Assembly (NCBI GenBank): GCA_963749495.1
Contig: CAVVMW010000021.1
Location: 288,001-352,000, forward strand
Length of the DNA stretch: 64,000 nt
Direction: 5' to 3'
Source of the DNA: an uncultured bacterium
GTDB lineage: Bacteria > Verrucomicrobiota > Verrucomicrobiia > Limisphaerales > UBA8199
Made by a program: the position numbers and the translations under genes
The notes under the pieces: generated by a model
The model's input: the letters and a program-made list of their open reading frames with translations, nothing else
Told to the model about the DNA's origin: nothing
The model's database searches: none
Part shown: in pieces, positions 25,269 through 54,851 of the stretch
How positions within the stretch are numbered: the first letter of the stretch is position 1
How the letters are laid out: every line of letters starts with the position of its first letter

Positions 25269-26329
25269 CGTCGCACCGGCGGCAAACCGGCGGCCCAGGC
25301 GGTGGCGCGGCGGAACAACTCCTGCACGGCAGGCACGCTCAGCGCCGCGGCATTATGCCCCAGGGGACACTGGAAGCTCCGTCCCTTGCCGCAGTTGGCC
25401 GTGAATGCCATGGGGTAGTACTTGCCGTCCACCTTCGATTTTGCCTGGGCCAGCACTTCGATCGGCACGTCGCCCGTCAGGCAGGTATAGAGCTCGTCCT
25501 CCGTCTCGAAGTCGCTCATGCCCTGCACCAGGGGATGGTCCGGTTTGACGATTTCGACCTTGAACCTCCCAAAGGGGTCGTGCTGGCGGACATTCTCGCC
25601 TGCCCACACGCGCCCGGCGACCTGGACAAACCCCGGCCACTCGTCGTGCCAGGCGCCGCAAGCGAAATGCAGCAGCACCACCCCTTTGCCGCCCTCGACG
25701 AACTGGCGGAGGTTGTCGCGGGCCTGCGGGCCGGGACCCGGCTGCTGCCAGGTCTGGAAGTGCAGGATGACGACGTCGTAGCGGGCCAGGGCCGAGGAGT
25801 CCAGAAAGTGCGGGTCCTCGACCGTGAAGACCTCGAGGCGGGGGTCCTGGCGCAGGGCTTGGGCGAGGACCGGCGCCGTTTGGCGCCAGAGGTGGCCCGG
25901 ATAATCGATCCCCGTCACCAGCAGCACGCGCGCCTTCATGGCCGTCGCGGCGGGTGTGGCCGCGGGCGGTTCGGCGGCCCAGGATGCCAGGCCGCAGCCC
26001 ACAAACAACAGCACCAGGGCCGCCGCAAACCGGCGGGCGAATGGGTGGGCGGGGGCGATTGGAGGCCGATTAAAACTGTCGGTCAGCCCGCGACGCCTTC
26101 CTGCCCCGGAGGGGCTTCCGAGAATAGCCCGGCGTTTCAACGCCGGGTGAGCGGACCCAAGGAGCCGGTCAGTCCCGAAGGGACGGCTGAAGGCAAGGAA
26201 TGTTCTCAGTCGTCCCTTCGGGACGAGGGTCCCTCTTGTGGCCTCCCCGGCGTTGAAACGCCGGGCTATTGTCAGGTGTCCCTTCGGGACAAAACCCCGG
26301 AGGCGTATGGTGGACGCTTGCAATCGCAC
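25265..26329 (-). CDS. Secreted ThuA-like (class I glutamine amidotransferase-like) domain protein; start uncertain, N-terminus overlaps repeat D
   Basis: VLLVTG..GH.W, FVEGGKGVVLLH, DELY and GKGRSF..LGH motifs; signal-like segment near 25980-26040. Confidence 0.8.
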   Translation of the reverse strand: MRLQASTIRLRGFVPKGHLTIARRFNAGEATRGTLVPKGRLRTFLAFSRPFGTDRLLGSAHPALKRRAILGSPSGAGRRRGLTDSFNRPPIAPAHPFARRFAAALVLLFVGCGLASWAAEPPAATPAATAMKARVLLVTGIDYPGHLWRQTAPVLAQALRQDPRLEVFTVEDPHFLDSSALARYDVVILHFQTWQQPGPGPQARDNLRQFVEGGKGVVLLHFACGAWHDEWPGFVQVAGRVWAGENVRQHDPFGRFKVEIVKPDHPLVQGMSDFETEDELYTCLTGDVPIEVLAQAKSKVDGKYYPMAFTANCGKGRSFQCPLGHNAAALSVPAVQELFRRATAWAAGLPPVRR

Positions 26330-33842: not shown

Positions 33843-34105
33843 GGGTGCGATTAAGAGCTTCGGGCATGCGCCTCGGGAGTTTTGTCCCGGAGGGACATCC
33901 GACAATAGCCCGGCGTTTCAACGCCGGGGAGGCCACAAAAGGGACCCTCGTCCCGAAGGGACGACTGAAAACACTCCTCGCTTTCAGCCGTCCCTTCGGG
34001 ACGGACCCTCTCCTTGGGTCCGCTCACCCGGCGTTGAAACGCCGGGCTATTGTCGAAAGCCCCTTCGGGGCAGAAAGGCGCCGTGGACTGACCGACAGTT
34101 TTTAA
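33843..34105. repeat. Family D element (second copy)
   Basis: Aligns end to end with the reverse complement of 26070-26331. Confidence 0.9.
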
Positions 34106-44753: not shown

Positions 44754-45395
44754 GTGTGCACGGGTTTCGAATACGATGTTTTCCTAAGCCACAGCTCAAA
44801 GGACAAGACGGTGGTGCGCCCGCTGGCGGAGCGGTTGCGCACTTGTCGCGCCGAAGCCGCCGGGCGAAGGCGGAAGGACGGGCTGAAGGTGTGGCCCGTC
44901 CGGCTGAAGCGCCTGCGAGAAGGCGGATTCGATGGATGGGTGCTCAGGCCCGAGCCTCCCCTCGCCCATCGGCTGGGAGAGGGCTCAGCGGTGAGGGCGG
45001 CGAAGGTCAATCCGCCTTCGCTCACAAGCTACGGCGGGACAGGGGACCGGCTGGAGCACTCGCTCGTGCTGGCTGGTCCGGCCGTAGCTTCAGTGCGAAG
45101 GCGGACCTGTCCCGCCGTAACCTCTTGGCGGAGGCGGATGCTCTGCATGTCGGCCAGTGCTTTCGGCTCTGACTGGGCGCAGTTGGCTCGTCGCTCCGAA
45201 GCTTCAGTGCGAAGGCGGAAGGCCGGCACGTGTGGGAGGGGCAACTTGCCCTTTCGCGACCCGCTGAACCTGGAGCGGCGTTTCATTCCCCTGCGCCTCG
45301 ACGACGCCCCCATCAAAGGCTCCGTGGAACAAACCCCGTCCAGTAGTAATAGCCGCTATAGCTGCATCGACAGGCATGGACATCCCCCGATTTGA
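44754..45395 (+). CDS. TIR-domain gene or remnant carrying about eight short in-frame insertions
   Basis: YDVFLSHSSKDK..VRPLAERL, LCMS..AFGSDWAQL and FRDPLN.ERRFIPLRLDDAPIKGS segments separated by inserts. Confidence 0.85.
   Translation: MCTGFEYDVFLSHSSKDKTVVRPLAERLRTCRAEAAGRRRKDGLKVWPVRLKRLREGGFDGWVLRPEPPLAHRLGEGSAVRAAKVNPPSLTSYGGTGDRLEHSLVLAGPAVASVRRRTCPAVTSWRRRMLCMSASAFGSDWAQLARRSEASVRRRKAGTCGRGNLPFRDPLNLERRFIPLRLDDAPIKGSVEQTPSSSNSRYSCIDRHGHPPI
44842..45219. repeat. Six 33-bp mini-elements: 44842-44874, 44895-44927, 45011-45043 (reverse), 45073-45105, 45106-45138, 45187-45219
   Basis: Shared CYNGTC start and RAGGCGGA end; each exactly 33 bp. Confidence 0.9.
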
Positions 45396-48300
45396 AACGC
45401 AACACCTGAATCCAAGAATCGCTGGCGCCGACATCGGTGATGCTTTTCAAGGATTCGTTCATGAATTACTTCTGCCTGAGCATCCCCAACTGCATCGTTT
45501 TCCTGGTGGCGGAAAAGATGGAGGAATCGATCTCATTGAGACGGCAGGCGCGTGCTTCGTCGCACAATGCAAGGTTGTCGGGGACGACGACTACGCACAA
45601 ATCGAACAGCGCTGGAAAACGGTGAGGGGGCACTTGGAGGAACATCTGCGCGACCCCAATGGGCCGACCAAAGGTCAGTCGTAATACGGTCCTTGGTATT
45701 CTACGGACGCGCCAATCGCTGAGTAGGCTCTCTGTGTCAGCGCAGTCTTCGCAAACGAGCAACTACGCCGTGACCTGGCGACAGGGATCGCCGGTTACTT
45801 CCGCGATGTCGCCAAGCGGCGCCGACACCTCTCCCATCTTGCAGCTCTGAGGGTCACAGTTGTTGACTGGAACGACCTTTGCGACCGCCTGCGCAAGCGA
45901 CCCAACACTCTGTTTCGGTGGTTTCCCAGATCACGGCCAAACGGCTTCGTCCCGCTTGATGAAGCGATTGATGTCGGCACATTCCGCGCTTACCTCAACA
46001 GTGGCACGTTGCCTTACTACAGCGTGGCTGAACATCTGTACGCCGCGCCCTCGCCGGGCAACGTCGCGATTCTGGATGAGGATAGTCTTCTCGTTCAGAT
46101 CGACAACCGGACGGTTACGGGACTGGTAATCAGCGGGAAGGGCGGGATCGGGAAAAGCCGGTTGACGTTGGAGCTTGGTTGGAAGGCGCTAAGAAAGGGT
46201 TGGGCCGTCATGCGAGTGGAAAGCCGCCTCAAGAGCGATGCGCTGGAGAGGCTCGCTGAACAGCTCTCGCCGCACATCCCAGCGCTGTTGCTCGTTGATT
46301 ACATCGAGACGCAGAGTGATTTCCTCGAACTGGTGGAGAATATATATCTTCTGAATGACACAGGCGTGGCACGCATTGGCTACGTTGCGGCGTGCCGCAC
46401 CGGTTACTACCACGAAGCTGTCGGTGGGACTGCCAGGCACTTGCCTCTTGATCTTTCGCCTCCACCGGGAGATGCCGCGGCTTTCTGGTTTAAGGAATAT
46501 CGCTGTGAATCTGTCAAGAGGATCTTGGCCAGAGCTGGACTCACCGTTACAGCGCAACATCTGGCAGTTTGTCACGATCTTCCGATTCTAGCCGTCTTCT
46601 TAACTTACCTGCACACGTTAGGGCGAACTGAGGAGCTTGCGGAATTGCTCAGGGAGGCAGAGTTTGGGCGGTGGATTGCCAGACGGGTGCAACTCAGTTT
46701 TTCGGCAAGGGATGTTTCGCGTGCCTTGGCATTGCTCGTTCCGCTGTTTCCGATGACGGATGCTGCCGCCGACAGACTTGAGTCTGTACAACTGCGTCCG
46801 GTTTTCGAACGTTTGGCAACTGACGGCTGGATCGAACGGGTGACGCCGTCCGAGCCGGCTTCATCCTGCGAGTGGGTTACGGCCCACGACGTTCTGGCCG
46901 ATCAGATCCTGATTGCCTATTTGCGCAGCATCCCCAATACGGCTGAGGCTTTTGTGGCACAACTCCTTTCACTCGCTACGAAGCTTGATTGTCTCGCTTC
47001 TGCCCTAATCGCGTTACAGCGAATCGCCGACGCGCCGCCCCTTAACGCTGTGCCGTGGGGTATGGTCATTACGAAGGCGATTGAAATGAACGAGAACGCC
47101 TGGCGTAAGGTCCGCAGCCTCCTGATTCGAACGACACCGCTGTCCGTTCCCGAAGGAATTGCGCTGCTCAATAAGCACAAGGGTCTTTGGACCGATGCGG
47201 AGCGAGAGATTGACTTCCACAATGCCCTTGGATGGTTCTGCCGCTGGTTGGCAATCACGCGCAGCGGGATTGATTCGGCGACACTTAAGCAGGAGTTAAC
47301 CCCATGGGTGATCAAAGCCGCACTGTTTGCCGAGAGAAGCAATTTTGTGCTCTCATGGGGCTTGCGGCTCGTTCCTGAAGCTTTGGCACATGTCGCACTA
47401 AAATGGATTGCCAATCGCCCAACTCTCTTCCAAACGCACTACTTAGTGGTCGCATGGCTGCAATGTCACCTGCCGGTCAAGGAAATCGGTGCCGCGGTTC
47501 AGTCCTGGTGTCAGAAGTTTTCGTCGGACCCTCACCTGAGCTTCGTAGCTGAGGCTTGGCTGGACGCTGGCGGAGACAAGACGGTCGTGGAACAACCGAT
47601 CCGAGACTGGCTGGGCGTCAACGCGAACAGGACGGGCGGGGCGGCAAGCCATGTTTACAGAGCTTGGCTGGAGGCTGGCGGGGACAACACGCTGGTGGAA
47701 CAACCGATCCGAGACTGGCTGGGCGTCGAGGCGAACAGGACGGGTGAGGCGGCAAGCCATGTTTACAAAGCTTGGCTGGACGCTGGCGGGGAACGGAATG
47801 TTGTGTGGGACTCCCTGCTGCTCTGGCTGACAAAGTACCGCACGAACGAATCTGCAGTATATGTGACGCACTTCGTGGCTAGGCACCGGGACCTCCCAGA
47901 GGCGTCAGTGAAGGACGTCTTGGCGTGGTGTCGCGCGTTCCCGGCGCACGAGGACGTTTTGTGGCGAGTGACCCAGCTCGGATCAAACCTCTTGAACGTC
48001 GATGTTTTGGAGGATGCGTGTGCGACAGCAGAAACGCTGTTGTCCCACACTGTTGACTCTTTAGAGGAAGTCAGCGAGCTAGCACGCGGGCAAGTCACGA
48101 CATTGCTCTGTTACCTGGTTGATGCTGCTAAAGAGCATTCGAGCAAAATGCGCGACCGATTGGACCGGCTCATTGTACTTTGGATGAGATACCCGGCCTC
48201 GTTTGGACGCAAACCGAAGCCTCACGCCAATATTCAGCGAATCGGATTTGCTCGCAGAGTGCTGCTCCTGCTTGATTCAGGTGAACTCAATATTGCCCGG

Positions 48301-48453
48301 GACAAAGCTTCTGTCCAACGGTTTCTCGAATGGATCGATGAGTGGGAAGTAGTCTGGAAGCGAAGGTTGCATTCGTCGATTGAGGTTTATAGCACACGGT
48401 ATCCAGCACCGGAAGCGTGGAGCATCGTTCGTTTGGAGGAACCGGAGGAATGA
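45376..48453 (+). pseudogene. PD-(D/E)XK nuclease-STAND/P-loop NTPase-helical repeat protein with two in-frame stops (TAA 45682, TAG 45724)
   Basis: KDGGID..QCK nuclease motif; Walker A GKGGIGKS and Walker B LLLVDY; ORFs 45376 and 46009 are in the same frame; visibly lower GC. Confidence 0.75.
47554..47790 (+). repeat. 108-bp (36-aa) internal tandem repeat, about 2.2 copies
   Basis: AWL(D/E)AGG units start at 47554, 47662 and 47770. Confidence 0.92.
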
Positions 48454-48462
48454 GTTAATTGC

Positions 48463-48840
48463 TCTGAAGCACGAAACCCGAGTACTGAGGTGGTTCCACG
48501 AAGTGCGTGCGGTGGTAAACCTGTTGACCGGGCCGGGTACGATCCAACGTCTGGACTGTGGCGGCTTCATCCTGCTGCGACCGGAGGTGCTGAGCCAGTA
48601 CGCCGCCGCCGTGCTGCGGAAGGTCCGCAAACATCCGCAGGAGCTGGGCTGCATCCGCGAGGATGAGTTGCTGGCCGGGGCTTTGGGCTACCAGGATTTC
48701 AAACGCCCGCCGCACGATGACGAGGCGGTTGTGTTGCGCACCCTGCTGGAGACTTTCATCAGCCGGGCTTGGTGTTTACGCCAGCCTTGCGATGCCTCGG
48801 AGATGCTGACTTTTCCGAGCTAATTTAGCCGCGAGCGCGA
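48463..48840 (+). pseudogene. Internal fragment of a large multidomain protein (COR-like segment)
   Basis: RAVVNLLTGPG..GGFILLRPE..LTFPS*FSRER; no start codon; family recognised from memory only. Confidence 0.55.
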
Positions 48841-48858
48841 GCGTCAACCAAAGTGACA

Positions 48859-48933
48859 AACCGCTAATCGTCGCTGATGGACGCTAATGTGGAGACTTGG
48901 CCCATTAGCACATATGAGCGCCGATTAGCGGTT
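48859..48933. repeat. Orphan inverted doublet of the 30-bp AACCGCTAAT-type repeat
   Basis: aaccgctaatcgtcgctgatggacgctaat, 15-nt spacer, attagcacatatgagcgccgattagcggtt. Confidence 0.85.
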
Positions 48934-48957
48934 CATGATCGGCTGGCATTTATCGGC

Positions 48958-49428
48958 CGGGCGGTGATTGACAACGAGAGCCGCGAACTGCTGGCGGTGC
49001 ATCACACCGGATTCATCGTGGCCGAAGCCGGGCAAATCTATCTCGGCTACACCTACAGCGATCACGGGATTGATGGCGAGATCGAGTTCAAGGACGACCA
49101 GGGGCGCGCCTCCGGGAAGCGTCTCTACGTGCAGCTTAAGTCTGGCGACTCCTATCTCAAGAAACGCCGGGGCGATGGGGCGGAGGTGTTTCAGATCAAG
49201 AACCCACGCTGGGCCGATTACTGGCAGCAGCAGGCTTACGCCGTCATGCTGGTCATCCGCACGTCCGATGGCGAAATTCGCTGGATGGACGTGAGCGCGT
49301 GGCTGAAACGCGAAAGCGTCGGCGGGAAAACCGTGAGGCAAATCGTCTTCGAGGGCGAACGGTTTGATGTGATGAGCGTGCGGCGGTGGCGAGAGCGAGT
49401 GCTGTGCGCAACGGGCAAGGACTGCTAA
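48958..49428 (+). pseudogene. DUF4365 (PD-(D/E)XK) C-terminal domain fragment
   Basis: SDHGIDGEIEF..YVQLKSGDSY motif; the ORF start at 48877 lies inside the repeat doublet. Confidence 0.75.
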
Positions 49429-49470
49429 TGTTTAGCGTTGATTTGTTCAGGGGGGCAGTCCAATGATTTG

Positions 49471-49982
49471 AACCGCTGATAATCACTAATTTACGCTAAT
49501 CGGACCAAGTAATCATATGAAGGCGGAAGTATATAAGGAAGAGGGCTACCAGTTCATGGGCGCGGCATTCGAGGTCTATAACGACCGGGGTTACGGACTG
49601 GCGGAGGAGATTTACCAGGAATGCCTCGAAATCGAGCTGGAGTTGCGCGCGATTGCGTTTCGGTCCAAAGCCGAAATCCGGTGCTTTTACAAGGGGCGCG
49701 AACTCAAGAAGCGCTACATCCCGGACCTGTTCGTGTTCGGTTGCCTGGTGGTGGAATTGAAGGCGGTGGCGGAGCTTGCGCCGGAGCATGAGGCGCAACT
49801 CATGAACTACCTGCGTATCGCCCGACAACCGGTCGGCTACTTGGTGAACTTCGGCCACAAAGGGACGCTCGAGTGGAAACGGTTCATCCTCTCGGAATTC
49901 ATCGCGCAAAGCGTTCACCCTGGCGCACCCCATGCTGCCGTTCCCAAGGTAGATTAGCGTAGATTAGCGCAGATTAGCGGTT
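49471..49982. mobile_element. Candidate GxxExxY element bounded by 30-bp imperfect inverted repeats (49471-49500, 49953-49982)
   Basis: Left arm aaccgctgataatcactaatttacgctaat; right arm reverse complement aaccgctaatctgcgctaatctacgctaat. Confidence 0.6.
49517..49957 (+). CDS. GxxExxY protein (PD-(D/E)XK nuclease family)
   Basis: GLAEEIY, PDL, VELKA, AQLMNYL and GYLVNFG motifs. Confidence 0.93.
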   Translation: MKAEVYKEEGYQFMGAAFEVYNDRGYGLAEEIYQECLEIELELRAIAFRSKAEIRCFYKGRELKKRYIPDLFVFGCLVVELKAVAELAPEHEAQLMNYLRIARQPVGYLVNFGHKGTLEWKRFILSEFIAQSVHPGAPHAAVPKVD

Positions 49983-51059
49983 CCAGATTAGCCATTCCCG
50001 AGCCCAAGCTCAAACTCGAGCTCCCCGGCCTGCGGAAGGCGGCGGTGGACAACTCGGGGCTGGTTTCCGGCAGGCCAGCCTTCCGGCGCGCGACGTGGAA
50101 CATTTGAGAAATCTGGTCGGCGAAGCTCCCCTCTCCGCGCATCCGGGAACCGAAGCGCGGATCGTTGAGCTTGCCGCCGCGCAGGGCACGGATGCGGCCC
50201 AGGATTTTTTCCTTTTTCGCGGGGACAGTACGTTCGAGCCATTGCTCGAAGATCGGCGCGACGGCCAGGGGCAGGCGCAGGACCTCGGTGCCGGCCCACA
50301 CCGCCCCGGCGGCTTTGGCTGCGGCCAGGACCGAGGGGATCTCGTGATCGGTCAGGGCCGGGATGACGGGGGCGACCAGGACGCCCACGGGCACGCCGGC
50401 GTTGGCCAGGAGTTCAACAGCGTCCAGGCGCTGCCTGGGCGAGGAGGCCCGGGCTCGAGCTGGCGCGCCAGATCGGGGTCGAGCGAGTTTATCGAGAAGT
50501 TGACGTGCACCGCCTGGCAGGCCGCCAGTTCGCGCAGCAGGTCCAGGTTGCGCGTGACCAGGAAGTTCTTGGTGACGATGCTGACCGGGTTGCGGAATTC
50601 GGCCAGTACGGCCAGGCATCGGCGGGTGAGTTGGAACCGGCGTTCGATGGGCTGGTAGCAATCGGTCACGCCGCTCATCGCCAACTCCTGGGGTTTCCAT
50701 TTGGGAGAAGAGAGTTCGCGTCTCAGGAGTTCCGGCGCGTTCTCCTTGACCATGATGCGGCTCTCGAAATCGAGCCCCGCGGAAAAGCCCAGGTATTCAT
50801 GATAGGGCCGCGCGTAGCAATAGCTGCACCCGTGCTCGCAGCCGCGATAGGGATTGAGGCTGGCGCGGAACGGGATGTCGGGGCTGTCGTTGTAAGTGAT
50901 GATACTCTGGGTGAGGTCGCGGAGGAATTGGGTCCTCGGGGCCGGGTCCTGCTCCGGGTCCCAGTCCGCATCGCGTTCGAGCCAGATGCGCTCGAAGCGG
51001 TTCGGAGGGTTGCTCGATGCGCCTCGCCCGCGCGGAGATGTTGCCGGCCTGTCGCTCAC
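49954..51059 (-). CDS. PA0069 family radical SAM protein, with a frameshift near 50452
   Basis: NPYRGCEHGCSYCYARP, SGVTDCYQP and RFGSRMRG motifs. Confidence 0.9.
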
Positions 51060-51126
51060 ACCTTCATTTTCCACCATCCTGGCGCTCGCGTCGAGGCACG
51101 TCCGTGCAGCTCCGCATTCTCGGGCG

Positions 51127-51327
51127 GGGCCGTTGACAAAGTTGTAGCGCAGGTTTCCAAACCTGCTGTATCGCCGATTTCCAATCGGCAGGGCGTCGGC
51201 ATGTCGAGCGCCCCCGGTTTGCGGACGGCCTGCGGGTTTGGAAACCCGCGATACAGCAGGTTTGGAAACCTGCGCTACGCTGGCGCCCCTGGCGCACAGG
51301 CGCGCCGAGCGACTTTGACAATGGCCC
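51127..51327. mobile_element. Family F MITE-like element (GGGCCGTTGACAAAG ends; internal GTAGCGCAGGTTTCCAAACCTGC doublet)
   Basis: Imperfect ~18-bp terminal inverted repeats; near-identical copy at 58476-58680. Confidence 0.8.
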
Positions 51328-51388
51328 TGCATTCTCAGGCCGTATGGCTGCACGGGCCTGGGACGACCACCAAAGGCGGGTCGCCTGC

Positions 51389-51859
51389 TCAGAGCGCGAG
51401 GAACTGTGGGCGGAGGCCCTTGGAGTCCGAGTGGAGCAGGGCGATGGTGCGGGGCAGGGCGAAGCGGGGTTTGCCGGCGTAGCCCGGGTTGAAGAAGAGG
51501 ATGCCGTGGGAGGTATCGCAAAACGGCTTGTGGGAGTGGCCGAACACGACGGCCGCGGGCCGCTCGCGGGCGATGGCGGCGCGGAGCGAATCGCTCGGGG
51601 CAAGGGGATTGACAATATGGTGCAGGAGGAACCTGCGGCCATCGAGCTCGACGGTTTCGAAGAGTTTGAAGCCAAGAAACGGGTCGTCGGTATTGCCCGC
51701 AACGGCGGTGACGGGGGCGAGCAGGCGCAATTGGGCCAGCAGCCAGGGCTGGCCGATGTCTCCGGCGTGGAGGATGTGCTCGACGCCCGCGCCCCGGAAC
51801 AGCCCCGGAATGGTCGAATCCAGGAAATTGTGCGTGTCGGAGATGACGCCGATGGTCAT
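51389..51859 (-). CDS. YfcE-like metallophosphoesterase
   Basis: SDTH, HAGD, GNTD, GHSH and NPG motifs. Confidence 0.92.
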   Translation of the reverse strand: MTIGVISDTHNFLDSTIPGLFRGAGVEHILHAGDIGQPWLLAQLRLLAPVTAVAGNTDDPFLGFKLFETVELDGRRFLLHHIVNPLAPSDSLRAAIARERPAAVVFGHSHKPFCDTSHGILFFNPGYAGKPRFALPRTIALLHSDSKGLRPQFLAL

Positions 51860-52485
51860 CAAGCGTCTTGCGGTTTGACGCCCTCTTCGCTTTCCGGCTC
51901 CGCGTCTTCGGCAGGCTTCTCCTCGGCCTCTTTTTCCTCGGCTGGTTCCGGGGCTTCGCTCAGCTTCATGGCGCCGGCGAACAGGCCGGTGAACAAGCCG
52001 CCACTCAGGAGTGTATTGCGGAAGAATTCGAGCGTGGTCGGGTAGCCGTTGGTGCCCTTGGTCAGGGCGATGAGCCAGCCTGAGAGGTCTTTGGGGTATT
52101 CCGGGTTGGCGAGCCATGCCGCCGTGTTGGTGATCAGGTAGAAGACGATGGCGCCCAGGATTCCCCCCGAGAGCAGGCGCACGAACGAGGACCGCGGGCT
52201 GAAGCGGGTGCCGAACCAGATGATGCAGCCGTAGGCGCCGTAATTGACCAGCATCCCCGCCGTGAAGGCCTGGACGTGATAGTAACACAGGTTGAGGACG
52301 ATGTTGGTGAACACCAATGTCCCCAGCGGCAGCCACCACTTCGTTGTGCGGGGGAAGAAGGCGCCGGCGCAAAAGGCCAGGCCGTAGAACGCGCTGAAAT
52401 TGGGCGGGAACAATTTGGGCCAGCGCGACAATGCGGCCAGCGCCATGAACAGATACGGCAGGCACTTGCTCCACTTCTCAGTCAT
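51859..52485 (-). CDS. DUF6580-like membrane protein (putative ECF S-component)
   Basis: PPNFS, FYLITN and FFRN motifs; hydrophobic helices. Confidence 0.7.
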   Translation of the reverse strand: MTEKWSKCLPYLFMALAALSRWPKLFPPNFSAFYGLAFCAGAFFPRTTKWWLPLGTLVFTNIVLNLCYYHVQAFTAGMLVNYGAYGCIIWFGTRFSPRSSFVRLLSGGILGAIVFYLITNTAAWLANPEYPKDLSGWLIALTKGTNGYPTTLEFFRNTLLSGGLFTGLFAGAMKLSEAPEPAEEKEAEEKPAEDAEPESEEGVKPQDA

Positions 52486-54176: not shown

Positions 54177-54242
54177 ACAGAAGGAAACGAAGGAAACAAA
54201 GGGCCATAGGGCGGGGCCTTCGTTTCCTTCGTTTCCTTCTGT
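54177..54242. repeat. Inverted doublet of ACAGAAGGAAACRAAGGAAACRAAG downstream of the second GxxExxY gene
   Basis: Arms at 54177-54201 and 54218-54242. Confidence 0.9.
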
Positions 54243-54251
54243 GAGTCTCTT

Positions 54252-54655
54252 TCAAGGTTGGTTGGCACCGGGCAGAATGAGACGGTGAATGCCGTTCACG
54301 AGCTTGAGTTCATGAAAGTTGATCAGGAGGCCAACGGGGATGTCGAGCAGCTTCATGTAACTGAGGAGTTTGGCCTTGTGGATGGGGAGGACTTCCTGAA
54401 CCGCTTTGAGTTCAAGGAGCAGGCAATCTTCGGCCAGAACGTCAAAGCGGAGCGGCTCCTCAAAAACGATTCCCTTGTACTCGATCTTGACGTCCCGCTG
54501 GTTGACCGCGGCTACGCCTCGAAGGCTCAATTCGCGCAGGAGGCACTTTTCATAAATGCTCTCGATGAGCCCGGCCCCTTAAGCCGATGCACCTCAATGG
54601 CTGCGCCAATCACCGTATGGCTGAGTTGGTCGGCCTTTTGGAACAGCGGATGCAT
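54252..54655 (-). CDS. GxxExxY protein, with a frameshift near 54570
   Basis: [24 protein letters not shown] and GLLINF motifs; one G missing in a G-run. Confidence 0.88.
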
Positions 54656-54699
54656 GGGTGGATACTACAGAAGGACACCATGAAAACAAAGGACATATC

Positions 54700-54851
54700 A
54701 CAGAAGGAAACAAAGGAAACGAAGAACTGAAAGGAGAATTGCTCGCTCGTGGATGGGACAGACTCGCTTGGGAACGCCCGGGCTCCAGACGTGTAAGGCT
54801 GGCTGGGCCGGCCTGACTCTTCTATTTTTTGTTTCCTTCGTTTCCTTCTGT
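54700..54851. repeat. Inverted doublet of the same 25-bp repeat upstream of the second GxxExxY gene
   Basis: Arms at 54700-54724 and 54828-54851. Confidence 0.9.

Follow-up and report, generated by a model that had tools for sequence, protein, structure and literature searches.

A PD-(D/E)XK-fold gene family, GxxExxY, linked to its own helix-phased inverted repeats in Verrucomicrobiota

Genes of the GxxExxY family mostly lie between short inverted repeats of their own, the repeat type follows the clade of the protein, and copies of the repeat elsewhere in a genome follow the presence of the matching clade. The link between gene and repeat is real and apparently undescribed, and is best seen as a variant of the known repeat-plus-enzyme systems; no description of flanking repeats at GxxExxY or PF13366 genes was found in the open literature. 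We analysed a stretch of 64,000 nucleotides from an uncultured member of the Verrucomicrobiota (hereafter the window), together with its genome of 11.4 Mb and the genomes of its relatives. Our preferred explanation, to which we give an even chance, is a nuclease specific to the repeat, with host repair of its cuts spreading the repeat arms.

The first-pass annotation of the window had described a GxxExxY gene between inverted 30-bp arms, each made of three units with a 10-bp period, and had placed its stop codon inside the right arm, and both descriptions were confirmed (Table 1). As an inverted match the arms cover 32 nt (49470-49501 and 49952-49983) and are 81% complementary. The TAG stop (49955-49957) lies within the first unit of the right arm, and residues ~130-146 of the 146-aa protein form a low-confidence tail running to it. 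This arrangement is common, not general, being present in 17 of the 35 genes of the clade whose downstream arm is inverted. A reversed triplet pattern, used as a control for chance, had no matches in the genome compared with eight for the real pattern. The annotation had also reported a gene-less copy of the same ends upstream. A doublet is indeed present, with a 15-bp spacer and ending 537 bp before the left arm (31 nt, 81% as an inverted match), but the four arms of cassette and doublet are only 77-83% alike, and are therefore members of one family and not identical ends. The doublet forms a hairpin of -22.4 kcal/mol (z -5.8) and none of 200 shuffles folded equally well; the single cassette arms had no structure when folded (z 0.67 and -0.10). 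An Rfam scan gave no match on the element.

Table 1 Coordinates of the cassette, the gene-less doublet and the neighbouring genes in the window
Feature	Position	Strand	Remarks
TIR-WD40-small-GTPase-DUF4365 gene, remnant of middle	48509..48852	+	ends at doublet; G002 has an intact copy (1163 aa) at this site
Gene-less doublet	48859..48933	.	inverted arms 48859-48888 and 48904-48933, 15-bp spacer
Same broken host gene, DUF4365 end	48960..49428	+	stretch between doublet and GxxExxY gene
Cassette left arm	49471..49500	+	AAC head, then three CRCTRAT units, 10-bp period
GxxExxY gene, PD-(D/E)XK fold	49517..49957	+	predicted active site E30, D70, E80, K82; Q94xxxY98 motif
Cassette right arm	49953..49982	-	inverted; carries the GxxExxY stop (TAG, +) and the convergent radical SAM stop (TAA, -)
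PA0069-like radical SAM gene	49954..51053	-	split across two reading frames; convergent with cassette
Extra degenerate unit, outside right arm	49984..49997	-	relatives' radical SAM genes end about here; the window frame continues into the arm

The window protein is a member of the GxxExxY family, with motif residues G27, E30 and Y33 and matches to TIGR04256 (127.9 bits, cut-off 35) and PF13366 (131.9 bits, cut-off 22). These two profiles were the only ones matched, with no HUH or DDE motif family among them, and a protein atlas search gave no usable match beyond PF13366. In a structure model with a pLDDT of 88, the best Foldseek match was Cas4 SSO0001 (E 9.7e-4), followed by lambda-type exonucleases, and in a wider structural search the best Z was 7.3 among restriction-like folds, with none at 8 or more. 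The leading structural matches all have the PD-(D/E)XK fold, and the fold matches listed include no transposase. Across 144 proteins, E30 is conserved in 143, D70 in 140, an E or D at position 80 in 143, K82 in 140, Q94 in 141 and Y98 in 132. The Q94 and Y98 residues form a QxxxY motif after the E-x-K site, which we take to be a feature of the Cas4, RecB-like and lambda-exonuclease group that heads the Foldseek matches. GxxExxY nevertheless differs from this group in its length of ~125 residues, its lack of conserved iron-sulphur cysteines and a sequence identity of <20%, and the wider structural search places restriction-endonuclease-like proteins equally. A sequence search of solved structures returned T7 endonuclease I alone (E 1.6), and support for a resolvase goes no further than the common fold. 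The model and the conserved residues suggest that GxxExxY is an active nuclease; its fold match is a generic one and does not pin down the substrate. The earlier view of GxxExxY as a PD-(D/E)XK-fold family without a known function holds, the fold being evident from sequence and model. In a survey of the superfamily (PMC3424549), the function of PF13366 is given as unknown and multiple transfers are noted.

PF13366 was carried by 33 of the 41 genomes searched in this order, and the named closest relatives of the window gene are mostly from Verrucomicrobiota. Proteins with 75-78% identity were also found on contigs labelled Acidoferrum and Haliangiales. With this one query (E<=1e-8), a set of 72,556 plasmid records gave 8 matches and a set of 50,697 phage records gave none. 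Forty-seven loci of the query clade occupy 30 neighbourhoods, with two old sites common to 6 to 9 loci. A long form of GxxExxY with a 318-aa open frame was seen between GGCAGAATCAT repeats (G000:C21:49733-50062); the genome contains 200 exact copies of this motif, and several relatives have comparable long forms.

In order to compare flanks across the family, we used 145 loci plus eight regions of the window's own genome, from which 165 domain hits yielded 144 full-length genes after fragments and three duplicates were dropped. One search was seeded with the query, which is why 48 of the 144 genes belong to its clade. An inverted flank match was present at 116 of the 142 genes with full flanks, compared with 5 of 398 long reading frames of the window's genome and 0 of 70 windows located 1 kb away. 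Phased triplets on both sides were found at 79 of the 142 genes, compared with 0 of 398 and 1 of 70 controls. Enrichment of inverted phased repeats, which the first-pass annotation had proposed looking for at GxxExxY genes, is thus evident. Twelve repeat classes could be assigned to 107 genes, and on the protein tree the class changed 16 times compared with 60-66 times in the five shuffles listed out of 200, a count that leaves out the 37 of 144 genes without a label. Repeat family thus follows GxxExxY phylogeny, which the annotation had made a point on which its proposal depended. Because a gene and its flanks are inherited together, the tree result alone proves nothing, and linkage could give it. 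Five loci (L057, L058, L065, L069, L121) form a subgroup nested within the CGCTAAT clade in which the arms have switched to CGCAGAT. Clade consensus lines were compared by eye, without a statistic, for residues that might determine specificity, and no convergent position was evident.

The specificity extends to repeats in trans. Five repeat families were counted in 41 related genomes, with one mismatch allowed in three families and none in two, and genes were assigned to clades by protein. Among these genomes, which are mostly drafts and as relatives are not independent, at least five copies were present in 38 of 44 genome-family cells with the matching clade and in 24 of 161 cells without it. 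The observed rank was reached in none of 20,000 shuffles of clade labels within genomes, and the same was true after subtracting three copies per gene. In 300 further genomes of the phylum, at least five CGCTAAT arms were found in 9 of 19 genomes with a close protein (E<=1e-40) and in 22 of 281 without, so that copy number follows the matching clade in both samples, as had been anticipated. Ten genome-family cells had 15 or more copies and no matching gene, and 22 of the 31 arm-rich genomes of the phylum sample had no gene at E<=1e-40. Among ten such arm-rich genomes, for which 28 of 59 matches were inspected, five contain a more distant clade member (four of these having arms beside it) and five showed none among the matches inspected. 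Six of the 19 gene-bearing genomes had zero arms matching the pattern. A correlation of this kind could also result if other enzymes moved the cassette and its decay left the gene-less copies, as is seen for the CGCGGAA family described below. In the window's genome, 543 arms were counted. Arms were located near 8 of 9 GxxExxY genes and near 1 of 21 Y1_Tnp genes, and Y1/RAYT transposases were rejected as the partner of the arms on the latter count.

The history of the window site shows what arrived and what was lost. In the congeneric genome G002, the intact TIR-WD40-small-GTPase-DUF4365 gene faces the radical SAM gene with 69 bp between them, and neither arms nor a GxxExxY gene are found there. 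For a homing endonuclease, the uninserted allele would be expected to carry the recognition site and insertion to destroy it; the empty G002 site has no arm, and the sequence of the 69-bp gap has diverged too far for the insertion junction to be located. The GxxExxY gene was also found in 0 of 80 metagenome loci of the host gene, 58 of which have at least 700 bp downstream; together with the G002 site this indicates that the cassette is a local arrival. It is present as a single copy in its own genome. At the doublet, a core of ~107 bp of non-host DNA (about 48853-48959) stands in place of ~510 bp of the host gene. The corresponding host interval was measurable in 50 loci, and was 483-577 bp in 47, a negative value in one and 293 bp in L275 and L283, which are near-identical. 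In these two loci a 143-bp CACGAAT doublet replaces 376 bp with no duplication. The left breakpoints of this replacement and that in the window lie within about 7 bp of each other and the right ends differ. L275 clusters with an intact allele (support 95/76), but the AU test did not reject a common origin with the window (p 0.22).

Several other observations were made around this site. Inspection of the intact host gene by eye showed a 6-bp stem 11 bases ahead of the shared breakpoint, an observation on two events only. In L260, L323 and L325, a duplicated DUF4365 piece of ~58 bp is followed directly by a CACGAAA-type doublet. Variable cargo is seen in the DNA downstream of the PA0069-like radical SAM gene (window 44754-48453, as well as L170 and L171 at G003:C7 and G001:C19), where relatives have several partial copies of the radical SAM 3' end with different genes in between. 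In the window, the host gene is interrupted by fragments of TIR sequence and by an 814-aa gene that weakly matches STAND NTPases. A second GxxExxY gene, broken and of another clade, is located 4 kb from the cassette (54252..54655, minus strand), with 9-bp GAAGGAAAC arms on both sides at about 54178, 54241, 54701 and 54850 (span 54178-54850); the syntenic stretch of G002 has no arms matching these. An inverted repeat at 51144-51280 is matched by many public contigs at high depth, and for this reason probably represents another abundant repeat family. Two inverted pairs of Acido-Lenti-1 motifs occur at 26102-26291 and 33883-34072. In run X3, one contig contains the DUF4365 tail and the whole cassette (window 49303-49978) with 56 differences in 676 bases, and among the rows shown this run has no other piece on window 47000-52000. 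The sequencing runs listed as matching the window include no RNA run and have small DNA shares, and no contig among them spans the site.

What is copied in the CGCTAAT family was studied in the window's genome and in two others, G024 and G038. Only 4 of 13 CGCTAAT arms in the window's genome are paired, compared with 84 of 100, 117 of 162 and 139 of 204 arms in inverted pairs for the abundant families of this genome. In G024 (30 loci of 76 places), arms are mostly single and lie in unrelated DNA, often amid other short tandem repeats, and mixed doublets of two repeat families are present. The doublet beside the G024 cassette contains 70 bp of the 5' end of the gene at 90% identity, and is therefore a deletion derivative of the cassette. 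Fifteen doublets from G038 have spacers of 12-116 bp, with 1 of 105 pairs homologous. The CGCTAAT arms of G024 and G038 have almost no flank or spacer sequence in common. Pairwise identity of arms was 0.88 and 0.93 in the cores, values raised by the search pattern, compared with 0.45 and 0.53 in the linkers and 0.27 and 0.31 in the tail flanks. No target duplication was evident at 30 CGCTAAT cassettes, where direct repeats numbered 11, 5 and 2 (k 4, 5 and 6) compared with 11.6, 3.1 and 0.8 in shuffles. Pairing between the flanks of a doublet, which would be a sign of selection on the hairpin, was not specific to the copy, with within-copy values equal to shuffled ones (p 0.23, 0.09 and 0.88). 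None of the 13 CGCTAAT arms in the window's genome lies inside ISKra4 ends. With no target duplication, no arms in such ends and a host deletion at the doublet, the CGCTAAT cassette was rejected as a DDE insertion sequence or MITE. A search for empty paralogues within the genome returned 12 candidate pairs from 322 repeat loci, with one clear doublet element inside a coding gene. In this case, a CACGGAT doublet element interrupts the gene at G000:C4:204507 (L201) and is missing from the paralogues at C15:360511 and C7:37260; its right end has a small GCGGC-loop-GCCGC hairpin.

Sister families in the same genome are partly amplified by a second route, hitch-hiking with DDE-type elements, which was shown for them and not for CGCTAAT. 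The non-autonomous elements that contain the CGCGGAA cassette have 23-bp GGG ends and a 9-bp duplication, which is exact in 6 of 15 paired non-autonomous copies and has one mismatch in three more. Ten full elements of 1.83 kb with the same GGG ends encode an ISKra4 transposase (family by NF033572), so that terminal repeats, target duplication and an autonomous partner are all present. BLAST identified 28 pieces with CGCGGAA cassette coding sequence, many joining the start of the gene to its end. Arms inside such shells account for 50 of 162 CGCGGAA, 85 of 204 GAAGGAAAC and 69 of 100 CGCAAAG arms. The GAAGGAAAC arms are found in a related 274-bp shell, with an 8-9-bp duplication in 9 of 26 paired shells. 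The CGCAAAG arms adjoin GAG ends, and an identical TNA triplet is present on both sides in 9 of the 12 testable doublets out of 31 copies, as expected from target duplication; a pattern search returned no autonomous insertion sequence with these GAG ends. The fixed, REPIN-like doublet spacing of the sister families of this genome lies largely inside DDE-type mini-transposon ends. Separately, group II intron sequence (Rfam group-II-D1D4-4 in L015) ends within the upstream CGCGGAA arm, at two different units, at G000:C10:555405, C22:460736 and C29:125455 (L015), and the arm may be a target of the intron. Several contigs of G000 (e.g., C14:373109 and C21:616286) carry another MITE-like family, an element of 145-147 bp that has GAGCCTGTCCCAAAA ends and TTTGTCG repeats inside.

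Among known systems, GxxExxY and its arms appear by analogy to work most like Ssn-NTS, and share the layout of REPIN-RAYT. In the Ssn report (PMC11893778), a small single-domain nuclease gene is flanked by its own repeat, many repeat copies have no gene, and there are many enzyme-repeat pairs each with their own specificity; a nuclease gene between its own repeat is likewise what the flank enrichment and clade match show for GxxExxY. In contrast, Ssn is a GIY-YIG enzyme and GxxExxY is PD-(D/E)XK by sequence and model; the NTS is a single-unit hairpin, whereas the GxxExxY arm has three direct units with a 9- or 10-bp period and no hairpin; and cleavage has been demonstrated for SsnA (PMC11893778), whereas GxxExxY is a predicted nuclease. 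The Ssn authors also raise the origin of the system from a domesticated mobile element (PMC11893778). With REPIN-RAYT (PMC3116915, bioRxiv 10.1101/2021.07.10.451892), GxxExxY shares inverted doublets in intergenic DNA that form hairpins (here at z -5.8), as well as a repeat type tied to the cognate enzyme, fewer repeats without the enzyme (here among kin that are not independent) and rarity on plasmids. The differences are that RAYT is an HUH/tyrosine transposase, single-site and vertically inherited, whereas GxxExxY has a PD-(D/E)XK nuclease fold and its clade is spread over 30 neighbourhoods among 47 loci, although two sites are shared by 6 to 9 loci, and is found at 75-78% identity on the contigs labelled Acidoferrum and Haliangiales; that REPs are palindromic and GxxExxY arms are not, two single arms having no structure; and that REPIN doublets have characteristic spacings, whereas CGCTAAT doublet spacers are unrelated and the doublet is not the dominant copied unit. 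MITEs are non-autonomous mini-elements of insertion sequences, and the sister cassettes resemble those of ISKra4 in their GGG ends, 9-bp target duplications and series of internal deletions. The window cassette and doublet differ in having no such ends or duplication, and in the sister elements the GxxExxY gene is cargo and not the transposase.

These comparisons bear on how the arms spread. The first-pass annotation had proposed that GxxExxY is a transposase-like mobiliser of a REPIN-like system, excising and inserting hairpin doublets as units in the way RAYT is thought to act on REPINs. The gene-in-repeat layout, the flank enrichment, the clade-specific counts, the strong hairpins of the doublets, the near confinement to chromosomes as in RAYT, the old sites and the mostly paired arms of the abundant families are all in keeping with this proposal. 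The association it predicted was therefore found, but the mobilisation it inferred fits poorly with a family in which only 4 of 13 arms here are paired, most inspected G024 arms are single, G038 spacers are variable and unrelated, insertions remove 376-510 bp of host DNA with differing right ends and without target duplication, and the protein has a plain PD-(D/E)XK fold and no HUH or DDE motif family. PD-(D/E)XK chemistry is also hydrolytic. We consider a mobiliser of this kind improbable. Less probable still, and in our view very unlikely, is a system acting on RNA, in which the enzyme would process or bind long hairpins formed by doublets and cassette arms within polycistronic mRNA. It would suit the 71 of 107 labelled cassettes that lie between two same-direction neighbours (by a crude reading-frame pick), examples of which sit among sugar-pathway and transporter genes. 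Single arms have no fold and are yet common and well kept, however, complementarity between the two flanks of a doublet is no higher than that with the flanks of other copies, the neighbours of the window cassette are convergent, and the window doublet has destroyed a gene.

A more serious alternative, although one we still rate as unlikely, is that the protein binds or cuts the repeat for another purpose, such as an Ssn-like filter on incoming single-stranded DNA, and spreads nothing. The gene-less copies would then be broken cassettes, together with arms moved by DDE transposases and general recombination. Much of what is seen in the sister families is consistent with this, from the CGCGGAA cassette inside GGG-ended elements with ISKra4-encoding full copies to the shares of arms found within shells of all three families and the TNA triplets of the CGCAAAG doublets. 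Arms also persist without the gene in many genomes, and SsnA provides a precedent for a repeat-flanked nuclease with an effect on its host (PMC11893778). For CGCTAAT, however, no arm of the window's genome lies in an ISKra4 shell, the near absence of common flank or spacer sequence in G024 and G038 means that no shell explains those arms, and the replacement junctions have no target duplication. Nor does this alternative explain why the DDE shells of a single genome came to contain three different families.

Under the repeat-specific nuclease that we prefer, the gene and its two arms make up a small cassette found at many different chromosomal sites. The protein would bind either the three sites of an arm, spaced by about one helical turn, or the long hairpin that a doublet forms, and its cuts would fall at arrays of its own 7-base unit or next to them. 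Host repair might then copy arm-bounded pieces to new places, and an arm or cassette landing between the ends of a DDE insertion sequence would be amplified by that transposase as a passenger. PD-(D/E)XK enzymes hydrolyse strands and do not join them, and GxxExxY, having no known strand-joining chemistry, would not be a transposase. More tentatively, and with somewhat less than an even chance in our judgement, cuts would be made beside the arm, repair would replace host DNA with arms, with doublets or with the cassette as a whole, and GxxExxY would be a large family of ~125-residue nucleases that each read their own three-unit, helix-phased array and drive repeat mobility without a transposase.

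If this is true, GxxExxY and its arms would join REP-RAYT and NTS-Ssn as a third system that pairs an enzyme with a repeat, and would include at least a dozen natural specificities. The results also account for a sizeable class of intergenic repeats in Verrucomicrobiota, the abundance of which has two sources that need to be separated, namely the matching nuclease clade and unrelated DDE transposases. Each GxxExxY clade gains a named candidate substrate, which opens binding and cutting to assays on short oligonucleotides, both within a clade and across clades, and the CGCTAAT to CGCAGAT subgroup represents a natural change of specificity that could be used to map the residues involved in recognition. 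If GxxExxY enzymes do cut, they would be very small sequence-specific nucleases with many natural specificities.
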